NCBI RefSeq assembly: GCF_022045235.1
Contig: NW_027266268.1
Span: forward strand, 37,262,001-37,326,000
Source of the DNA: Haliotis cracherodii
Taxonomy: Eukaryota
Direction of reading: 5' to 3'
DNA: 64,000 nucleotides
Below are positions 16,064 to 19,000 of the stretch, piece after piece (the stretch's first letter is position 1; every line of letters starts with the position of its first letter). The notes below the pieces were generated by a model, which ran no database searches, had not been told where the DNA came from, and saw only the letters and a list, made by a program, of their open reading frames with translations. The position numbers and the translations under genes are program-made.

Positions 16064-19000
16064 CTGAAATAGATATAGTTTGATTGTGAGACACTACAAC
16101 ACGGCNNNNNNNNNNNNNNNNNNNNNNNNNNNNNNNNNNNNNNNNNNNNNNNNNNNNNNNNNNNNNNNNNNNNNNNNNNNNNNNNNNNNNNNNNNNNNNN
16201 NNNNNNNNNNNNNNNNNNNNNNNNNNNNNNNNNNNNNNNCACCTGAAATATACATGCTTATATTTCGTTTCTATAACGTTTAATTTCACAGATAATATTG
16301 TTGCAATGTTAAAATCACATCCAACATTAGTTTAACATTAACAATAACACCGTGTAGGGCACCTAATAAATACGATACACAGAAACTAGTATATCACATT
16401 GTGCACCTAATACTAGTACATACAATCCTAAGAAACAATCATTGTATAAGGTACAATGATTAGGCATACGTACAAACATGAGTGATCTCAACCGACACAG
16501 ACACACATAAGGTGCAGGGGTCTCAACATACACAGACACACATAAGGTACAGGGGTCTCAAAATACACAGACACGAAAAGGTACCGGGGTCTCAACATAC
16601 ACAGACACACATAAGGTACAGGGACCGCAACCTACACAGACACACATAAGGCACAGGGACCTCAACAGACACAGACACACATAAGGTACAGGGACCTCAA
16701 CAGACACAGACACACATAAGGTACAGGGACCTCAACAGACACAGACACACATAAGGTACAGGGGTCTAAACAGACACAGACACACATAAGGTACAGGGGT
16801 CTCAACATACACAGACACACATAAGGTACAGGGGTCTCAACAGACACAGACACACATAAGGTACAGGGGTCTCAACAGACACAGACACACATAAGGTACA
16901 GGGACCTCAACAGACACAGACACACATAAGGTACAGGGACCTCAACAGACACAGACACACATAAGGTACAGGGGTCTAAACAGACACAGACACACATAAG
17001 GTACAGGGGTCTCAACATACACAGACACACATAAGGTACAGGGGTCTCAACAGACACAGACACACATAAGGTACAGGGGTCTCAACAGACACAGACACAC
17101 ATAAGGTACAGGGGGCTCAACAGACACATATGAAGTACAGCGGTCTCAAGATAGACACACATAAGGTGCAGGGACCTCAACATAGACACACATCAGGTAT
17201 GGTGCAGTGATTTTATCACAGACACTGGGTCACCGCAAACCAAACAAAGTTAAAGGTACAGGGACTAAATCAAATCGGAATCCATTCTACGCGCGTGCAT
17301 CTATTGCACGTGTTTCAGGATCGTCACTGTATGTTTAAAACTGAACAACATTAAAAAAGCAAAACTCACTGTCCATGTCGAAATACTGGAAGATGAAAGG
17401 TAAATCAGCCTTGGTAATTTTGCCATCGTCATTTGCATCAGCTGCATCGAAGAGGGCGGTCGCCTCTGCCGTTGCTCCCAGCTTATACTTGGTAACCCAG
17501 TCAATCTCGAACTCCAACTTTGTGATCTCCGTGTCATCTACAACAGACGGGAGGATATCCACCCACATGTGTGTCAGCTAGTACTATCGTCTACAACAGA
17601 CGGGAGGACATCACCCACATGTGTGTCAGATAGTACTATCGTCTACAACAGACGGGAGGACATCACCCACATGTGTGTCAGCTAGTACTATCATCTACAC
17701 CTGACGGGAGGATATCCACCCACATGTGTGTCAGCTAGTACTATCATCTACAACAGACGGGAGGACATCACCCACATGTGTGTCAGCTAGTACTATCATC
17801 TACAACAGACGGGAGGATATCCACCCACATGTGTGTCAGCTAGTACTATCATCTACACCTGACGGGAGGATATCCACCCACATGTCTGTCAACTAGTACT
17901 ATCATCTACAACAGACAGGATGACATCCACATCATGTGTGTCAGCTAGTACTATCATCTACAACAGACGGGGGGACATCACCCACATGTGTGTCAGCTAG
18001 TACTATCTATCATCTACAACTGACGGGAAGACATCATCCACATGTGTGTCAGCTAGTACTATCTATCATCTACAACAGACGGGATGACATCCACATCATG
18101 TGGGTCAGCTAGTACTATCCTCTACAACAGACGGGATGACATCCACATCATGTGGGTCAGCTAGTACAATCGTCTACAACAGACAGGATGACATCCACAT
18201 CATGTGGGTCAGCTAGTACAATCGTCTACAACAGACAGGATGACATCCACATCATGTGGGTCAGCTAGTACTATCCTCTACAACAGACAGGATGACATCC
18301 ACATCATGTGGGTCAGCTAGTACAATCGTCTACAACAGACAGGATGACATCCACATCATGTGGGTCAGCTAGTACTATCCTCTACAACAGACAGGATGAC
18401 ATCGATGTGTGTGATAGTGTACAACATGACGATGTGTGTGGTAGTATACAACATGACGATGTGTGTGGTAGTAAACAACATGACGATGTGTGTGGTAGTG
18501 TACAACATGACGATGTGTGTGGTAGTGTACAACATGGCGATGTGTGTAGTAGTGTACAACATGACGATGTGTGTGGTAGTGTACAACATGACGATGTGTG
18601 TGGTAGTATACAATATGACGATGTGTGTGGTAGTGTACAACATGACGATGTGTGTGGTAGTATACAATATGACGATGTGTGTGGTAGTATACAATATGAC
18701 GATGTGTGTGGTAGTGTACAACATGGCGATGTGTGTAGTAGTGTACAACATGACGATGTGTGTGGTAGTGTACAACATGACGATGTGTGTGGTAGTATAC
18801 AATATGACGATGTGTGTGGTAGTGTACAACATGACGATGTGTGTGGTAGTATACAATATGATGATGTGTGTGGTAGTGTACAATATGACGATGTGTGTGG
18901 TAGTATACAACATGACGATGTGTGTGGTAGTGTACAACATGACGATGTGTGTGGTAGTGTACAATATGACGATGTGTGTGGTAGTATACAATATGACGAT

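Follow-up and report, generated by a model that had tools for sequence, protein, structure and literature searches.

Splice sites that have been copied in tandem are known from several genes, and the copies meet with different fates. In amphioxus, minisatellites termed mirages consist of tandem copies of the 3′ end of an intron together with the 5′ part of the exon; their units are 81-100% alike, the arrays are unstable in length and splicing is undisturbed (PMC3087553). In human F7, a 37-bp VNTR in IVS7 presents 5-9 identical donors of which only the exon-adjacent one is used, and minigenes showed that the pseudo-sites work once the real site is mutated (PMC1557585). The LMNB2 and PDGF repeats, as cited in that report, are similar silent splice-site repeats, and in IFI6 (6-16) and CBS, likewise cited there, two neighbouring pseudo-sites are used (PMC1557585). 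The passages of PMC10078293 that were consulted contain no acceptor-repeat case, and a literature search, in which the word 'mirage' was not used, found no case from a mollusc. Here we describe an array of acceptors in an abalone gene which is likely to be another such mirage, this time from a mollusc, and a commonplace repeat that is remarkable for its location.

The window, the whole stretch of DNA that was analysed, comprises 64,000 nt of Haliotis cracherodii (contig NW_027266268.1, positions 37,262,001 to 37,326,000), and coordinates below count from its first letter. Five small EF-hand genes of one family lie in tandem within it (~8620-10160, 15983-20812, ~31520-35382, ~51170-52400 and ~53170-55450), all on the minus strand and with introns at matching places. 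The second and third, genes B and C, are close paralogs (P0001, P0006), and the other three are distant. Gene B, the host of the array, has four coding exons on the minus strand. The first (20769..20812) encodes a hydrophobic N-terminus, by eye a likely signal peptide; the second (20218..20342) carries the first EF loop and ends at donor 20217; the third (17370..17537, 168 nt) matches P0001 at 100%; and the fourth (15983..16063) ends at the stop codon. Joining donor 20217 to acceptor 17538 gives a 138-aa frame identical to P0001, a record named 'insoluble matrix shell protein 5-like [Haliotis cracherodii]'. Five Pfam EF-hand families exceed their cut-off in this protein, and a search with the exon-3 protein sequence returned 6 hits among 36 candidates, all Haliotis proteins. 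An acceptor-like site just above the start codon (20813-20845), with a counterpart in gene C, suggests a 5′ untranslated region with an intron, and intron numbers here therefore count coding exons only. There is also an assembly gap of 134 N (16106-16239) in intron 3, ~40 nt above exon 4.

The annotation name makes gene B a likely shell protein. A similar abalone protein, Hdh-SMP5, is described as mantle-enriched (PMC10741955), and gene B resembles the secreted IMSP5/SMP5-like EF-hand proteins in its name match, its EF-hand families and its size (138 aa vs 134 aa for Hdh-SMP5; PMC10741955). This is a likeness of size and motif which does not imply orthology, and the shell role of gene B follows from the name only.

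The two introns that flank exon 3 are 2680 and 1306 nt long. The first of these, coding intron 2, is 98% repeat: 45 unique bases are followed by 65.6 copies of a 27-mer and then by a second array, with a period of 52, which occupies the 3′ end of the intron and reaches position 17534, 4 nt inside exon 3. Tandem Repeats Finder (TRF) places this second array at 17534-18403 (minus strand) with 16.5 copies and 92% matches, and a table of the units gives lengths of 52, 53 or 56 nt. Each unit combines ~48 nt of intron end, AG included, with the opening 4 nt of exon 3, in some units in altered form. The word TGTAG ends at 17 places between 17538 and 18382. The last of these belongs to the authentic 3′ splice site of coding intron 2 (17538..17557, AG ending at 17538), and the other 16 (17591..18382) end at 17591, 17643, 17695, 17748, 17800, 17853, 17906, 17958, 18014, 18070, 18122, 18174, 18226, 18278, 18330 and 18382. 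The original prediction had counted ~16 copies with ~15 decoys to be skipped; the array is as it described, and the count becomes 16 upstream copies plus the real one.

The copies are much alike. Over the final 20 nt, the 16 upstream sites share 17-20 positions with the real site, and whole upstream units are 81-98% identical to the exon-adjacent one. A candidate branch point, CTGAC, lies in the last unit at 17573..17577 (minus strand), with its A at -37 and 17 nt downstream of the previous AG; the word is CTGAC in 15 of the 16 full units and TTGAC in one, with the A at -36 or -37. The unit proposed earlier, of 52-53 bp with CTGAC and AG, is thus correct as far as it goes, to which the 56-nt units and the single TTGAC are to be added, and the letters quoted for it are those of the units of AGs 17538 and 17800. 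The exon itself begins with ATGA, and the heads that follow the 16 upstream AGs are ATGA (8), ACGA (5) and AGGA (3). Mean identity is 0.91 between neighbouring units and 0.81-0.83 at a distance of 6-15 units. The AG is retained in 17 of 17 copies and TGAC in all 16 full units, which homogenisation explains and which selection could explain too.

A tandem repeat in an assembly may be the work of the assembler, which here would have multiplied the last 52 nt, and the N gap at 16106-16239 is only 1.3 kb away. However, the units differ by up to 19% and do so along a gradient, and tandem units are also found in DNA contigs of another species. The search for sequencing runs listed 21 runs, four of which were aligned to 17200-17620 (exon 3 and 1.6 units), with 18 of 76 pieces examined. 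In X7, a DNA-like run from organism B, there is a joint going back 52 nt at a depth of 43.6, and a 49-nt contig of the unit has a depth of 179.5 against 11.4 for the exon (~16x), a ratio of contig depths that does not give the copy number. In four DNA-like runs of one study, to which the source sample may belong, 0.53-0.64 of the words sampled from 17300-18420 are present; this is above the share of words in that stretch that lie outside the array (238 of 736 distinct words). The shares of X5 and X6 (0.31-0.32) are explicable by non-array words alone, and nine runs at 0.11-0.20 were left out. An assembly artefact is therefore scarcely credible. Raw DNA reads of X19 gave 0 alignments out of 12,836,656, where ~6 would be expected on unique sequence for an assumed genome of 1.2 Gb. 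One contig of X12, from organism D, spans the boundary between two units, and altogether the repeat was found under three species labels. The relatives' units likely sit in the same intron; in X7, record 11 (17373-17553) holds exon 3 and just 16 intron letters, which is below the 31-letter rule for bridging.

What would follow from the use of an upstream copy can be read from the frame. The last AG gives an exon 3 of 168 nt, whereas the upstream AGs give 221-1012 nt. Every one of the 16 leads to an in-frame stop, a TGA after five codons in 14 cases and a TAG after three in the other two. A stop within five codons had indeed been predicted, and it holds for 16 of 16; the exact string then quoted, AT GAT AGT ACT AGC TGA, follows only 5 of them. 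The predicted products are 59-61 aa long with one complete EF loop, which agrees with the truncated one-EF peptide proposed at the outset for the case that an upstream copy is chosen. In mammals, nonsense-mediated decay (NMD) acts on stops more than 50-55 nt above the last exon junction, a rule that is an extrapolation for molluscs. The premature stops here are 204-995 nt before the last junction (exon 3/4), and thus a leak would satisfy it. In the region 17560-17990, 8 of the 16 upstream AGs are followed at a distance of 24-28 nt by a donor-like CAT/GTGGGT, with which they could bound a micro-exon containing a stop. As a donor this word falls short of all 11 real ones listed, and its use was not seen in the contigs.

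Which AG is used was read from RNA-derived contigs of relatives. Six of the listed runs were guessed to be RNA, none being recorded as such or bearing the species label of the four DNA-like runs above, and two of the six were aligned: X12 (organism D) and X13 (under the species label of X7). That these two are RNA is supported by their deep contigs, in which exons 2, 3 and 4 follow one another with the introns removed. In X12, record 1 (427 nt, depth 984.4) joins 120 letters of exon 2 at 17537 and continues into exon 4 at its other end; in X13, record 3 (330 nt, depth 967.5) has 34 exon-2 letters joined at the same place. Both cover exon 3, their other loose end consists of exon 4 letters, and the residues that they encode are, by eye, present in P0002. 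Gene B is thus expressed and spliced in relatives, and together with the 138-aa frame identical to P0001 these junctions bear out the claim that the last unit, at 17538, is the real acceptor.

Among the nine loose ends listed, none has exon-2 letters at the AG of a unit, and none of the contigs retained in the two sets runs from a unit into exon 3; the depth is flat, at 984.4 and 967.5, through the bin 17515-17529. Every molecule that is spliced upstream or left unspliced must contain the junction of a unit with exon 3, and the flat depth therefore argues against such contigs among those retained. The unit itself is present at low level. In X12 its depth is 2.3, or 0.23% of that of the exon. 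In X13 it is 78 at 17545-17559, which is ~8% of the exon at most since overlapping contigs and all copies are summed; in the DNA of X7, which has the same species label, the unit stands at 52 times the exon depth, and this brings X13 to ~0.16% per copy. The X13 signal fits unspliced precursor, for which the intron 3 stretch 17200-17349, with zero coverage in all four runs, provides no control. Contigs show presence and not absence, since assemblers prune weak branches beside deep ones, and summed contig depth is a poor measure of level. Moreover, the RNA reflects the steady state of relatives in which NMD is active, so that mis-splicing is understated. The outcome named beforehand as refuting a role of the upstream copies was that all reads use 17537 regardless of array length. 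Of this, what stands is that 17537 is the sole exon-2 junction in both contig sets; independence of array length does not follow from them, and rare forms would have been pruned.

These data bear directly on the function first suggested for the array, namely that upstream copies are used at a real rate, that the products are destroyed by NMD or give a secreted one-EF peptide, and that copy number thereby sets the amount of productive mRNA. The two nearest copies, with exons of 221 and 273 nt, would be the most plausible ones to leak. The near identity of the sites (17-20 of 20 nt) speaks for such a rheostat, as does the fact that all 16 stops precede the last junction by more than 55 nt. The X13 RNA contigs do include unit sequence, and 26 of the 27 X13 records are other than the spliced contig. 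There is also a precedent in ABCA7, where one VNTR unit is retained with a resulting frameshift and splicing varies with array length (PMC5954066). However, neither a junction of exon 2 with a unit nor one of a unit with exon 3 is present in either RNA-derived set, and the unit signal amounts to 0.2% in X12 and ~0.16% per copy in X13. If the nearest copies alone leak, extra distant copies would matter little. We consider regulation by copy number unlikely, and the claim that it tunes mRNA or yields a peptide is not borne out by the two sets, where upstream use is unseen and the unit is at 0.2% (X12) and at ~8% or less when summed (X13).

The array might instead weaken the definition of exon 3, its length shifting the transcript towards skipping of that exon or retention of intron 2. 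Since exon 3 measures 168 nt, its skipping keeps the frame and would give an 82-aa protein. In ABCA7, skipping of the following exon is associated with VNTR length (PMC5954066). In X12, on the other hand, the deep contig runs unbroken from 120 exon-2 letters through exon 3 into exon 4, in an alignment where the stretch 17200-17620 could not capture a contig of exon 2 joined to exon 4 and skipping was thus invisible. The chance that the array acts in this way seems to us very slight.

We think it likely that the array is instead a silent mirage, a tolerated minisatellite born by slippage, in which the spliceosome picks the last copy, probably through exon definition. The intron end (~48 nt) and 4 nt of exon would have been copied in tandem, likely by slippage or unequal crossing-over, and then homogenised. 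The spliceosome would define exon 3 from its downstream donor, with the exon-adjacent AG as the winner. As exon 3 lies between two long introns (2680 and 1306 nt), pairing across the exon is to be expected, and in such pairing the last AG would be favoured because it gives the shortest exon. Words of the GAR type are enhancers and words of the TAG type silencers in mammals. The 40 nt after the last AG contain no TAG and three GAR, and those after each of the 16 upstream AGs contain 1-3 TAG and no GAR; real, purine-rich exon sequence follows the last AG only and may help the choice. Given the size of its footprint at a branch point, U2 seated on the branch point of one unit could also hinder the previous AG, 17 nt above. 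Any leak would carry a premature stop and be cleared by NMD, so that the cost would be low and the array free to drift.

Data from human genes agree with the silent mirage in part. [quoted passage not shown] Where 3′ sites compete, however, the upstream one is preferred overall, and exon definition merely reduces this preference (PMC9225289); exon definition alone may therefore not explain the choice, and context must help. The leak to two neighbouring copies in IFI6 and CBS also counts against a silent array.

Two further ways of handling spare sites were considered and rejected. Masking by RNA structure would set the real AG apart from the others, and its predicted unpaired probability (0.37-0.38) falls within the range of the upstream AGs (0.16-0.83). 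In recursive, or ratchet, splicing an AG is directly followed by a GT donor. None of the 17 main AGs has a GT after it, the next two letters being AT, AC or AG, and an additional AG/GT, 6 nt upstream of the main AG and a poor donor word, occurs in only 2 of 16 units.

The second component of the intron, the 27-bp minisatellite (18403..20172, minus strand, 65.6 copies by TRF), abuts the 52-mer array and contains only three AGs in 1770 nt. It would be tempting to see in this the result of selection for an intron free of AG. A second array of the 27-mer, between genes C and B and outside genes (28319-28773, minus strand, 16.7 copies), has no AG in 455 nt, and the scarcity of AG is therefore no evidence for selection. 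By eye, this second array appears to be flanked by pieces of dispersed repeats. The 27-mer can be aligned to the 52-mer with two gaps at a score of 32, which none of 500 shuffles reaches, in a comparison picked after the sequences had been seen; the units of five other arrays score 12-25.5. Relative to the 52-mer, it is without the G of the AG and the exon head, the pyrimidine block and CTGAC. Two origins are conceivable for it: deletion from the mirage, or a dispersed satellite, which then fused with the acceptor. A more elaborate version of the former has the mirage in the course of being disarmed: the 27-mer would derive from the acceptor repeat by loss of the AG, the pyrimidine block and the branch point, and the 16 intact copies would be leaky poison acceptors that set, through NMD, the dose of a secreted calcium-binding protein in abalones. 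This we regard as very unlikely.

The paralog offers a point of comparison. The corresponding intron of gene C is ~0.9 kb long with a single exon-3 acceptor (32583..32592, minus strand), which is the same as that of gene B at 9 of the last 10 nt, and CTGAC is absent from the 83 nt examined. Whole units score 16.5-31.5 against the end of the C intron. This beats shuffled sequence for most of them (in 13 of 16, at most 10 of 1000 shuffles reach the score). Whole-unit homology with gene C was nevertheless rejected, as these scores are not above those of control acceptors, the best of seven giving 22-31.5; the control that scores best is mostly the exon-3 acceptor of the distant paralog E, shifted by one base, and this is a homologous site too. 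The statement that paralog C has one copy of the site accordingly applies to the acceptor core and not to the whole unit. A dispersed 27-bp satellite may have invaded the intron and fused with the acceptor at shared short words, after which the chimera was amplified; the satellite, and not the old intron, would then be the source of the branch point and of the 5′ half of the unit. This origin is compatible with silent copies. The alignment of the two units (score 32, 0 of 500 shuffles), the 27-mer array outside genes at 28319-28773 and the restriction of clear likeness with C to the last ~10 nt of an intron that lacks CTGAC there are all in its favour. Against it, the distal units 8, 12, 13 and 15 match the end of the C intron over their full length (0-2 of 1000 shuffles score as high); this agrees with the opposite sequence of events, in which the 27-mer arose from the 52-mer by deletion. 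We give the satellite origin somewhat less than an even chance.

Tandem repeats are common in this region. The window contains seven minisatellite arrays, which make up 9.8% of it; five are within introns of the EF-hand family and one spans a splice site. Arrays therefore seem to arise readily here. Apart from those already described there are four unrelated ones, at 9443-9839, 14494-15710, 16486-17128 and 34418-35309, with units of 30, 46, 35 and 19 bp. Three of these four are within introns of the family and none spans a splice site; the 19-mer array begins ~30 nt past the first donor of gene C. In two other paralogs, short-period repeats (8798-8837 and 53742-53795) stand shortly before the exon-3 acceptor; counting gene B, three of the five genes thus have a tandem repeat directly upstream of this site.

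The array can be regarded as a natural test of 3′ splice-site choice: in a highly expressed gene, 17 acceptors that are nearly identical follow one another every 52 nt, and a single junction count there could tell exon definition from first-AG scanning. A length-dependent leak, were one to be found, would match on the acceptor side what the CBS and ABCA7 VNTRs do, and would amount to a simple heritable control of a likely shell protein.

Compared with described systems, the array shares five features of mirages other than their instability in length (PMC3087553): it is a head-to-tail minisatellite, its unit lies across the intron-exon boundary with a minimal exon part, the splice signal is kept, the units show concerted evolution and, in the contigs of relatives, regular splicing is undisturbed. 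The BflGb6 mirage of amphioxus is alike in combining intron end and exon start, in unit identity (81-100%, here 81-98%), in concerted evolution and in undisturbed splicing (PMC3087553). Unlike BflGb6, the array has a mollusc as host, 17 copies instead of 3-6, an exon part of 4 nt, an AG in every unit and a related, signal-free 27-mer array beside it. With merely 4 nt of exon, a model of intron gain in which the exonic part of a unit becomes exon has little material to work with. IFI6, CBS and ABCA7 intron 18 resemble gene B in that their units carry a copy of a splice site and the use of a spare one leads to aberrant mRNA (PMC1557585, PMC5954066). These, however, are donors for which use of the neighbours and polymorphism in length have been shown, whereas in gene B the site is an acceptor and upstream use is unseen in both contig sets. 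The F7 VNTR likewise repeats a donor and has been tested by minigenes, in contrast to gene B, which is known from sequence and the contigs of relatives. In both, the first unit crosses the junction and includes 4 bp of exon; in F7 the spare sites are silent and the exon-adjacent copy wins (PMC1557585), which is also the likely behaviour of the array in gene B.
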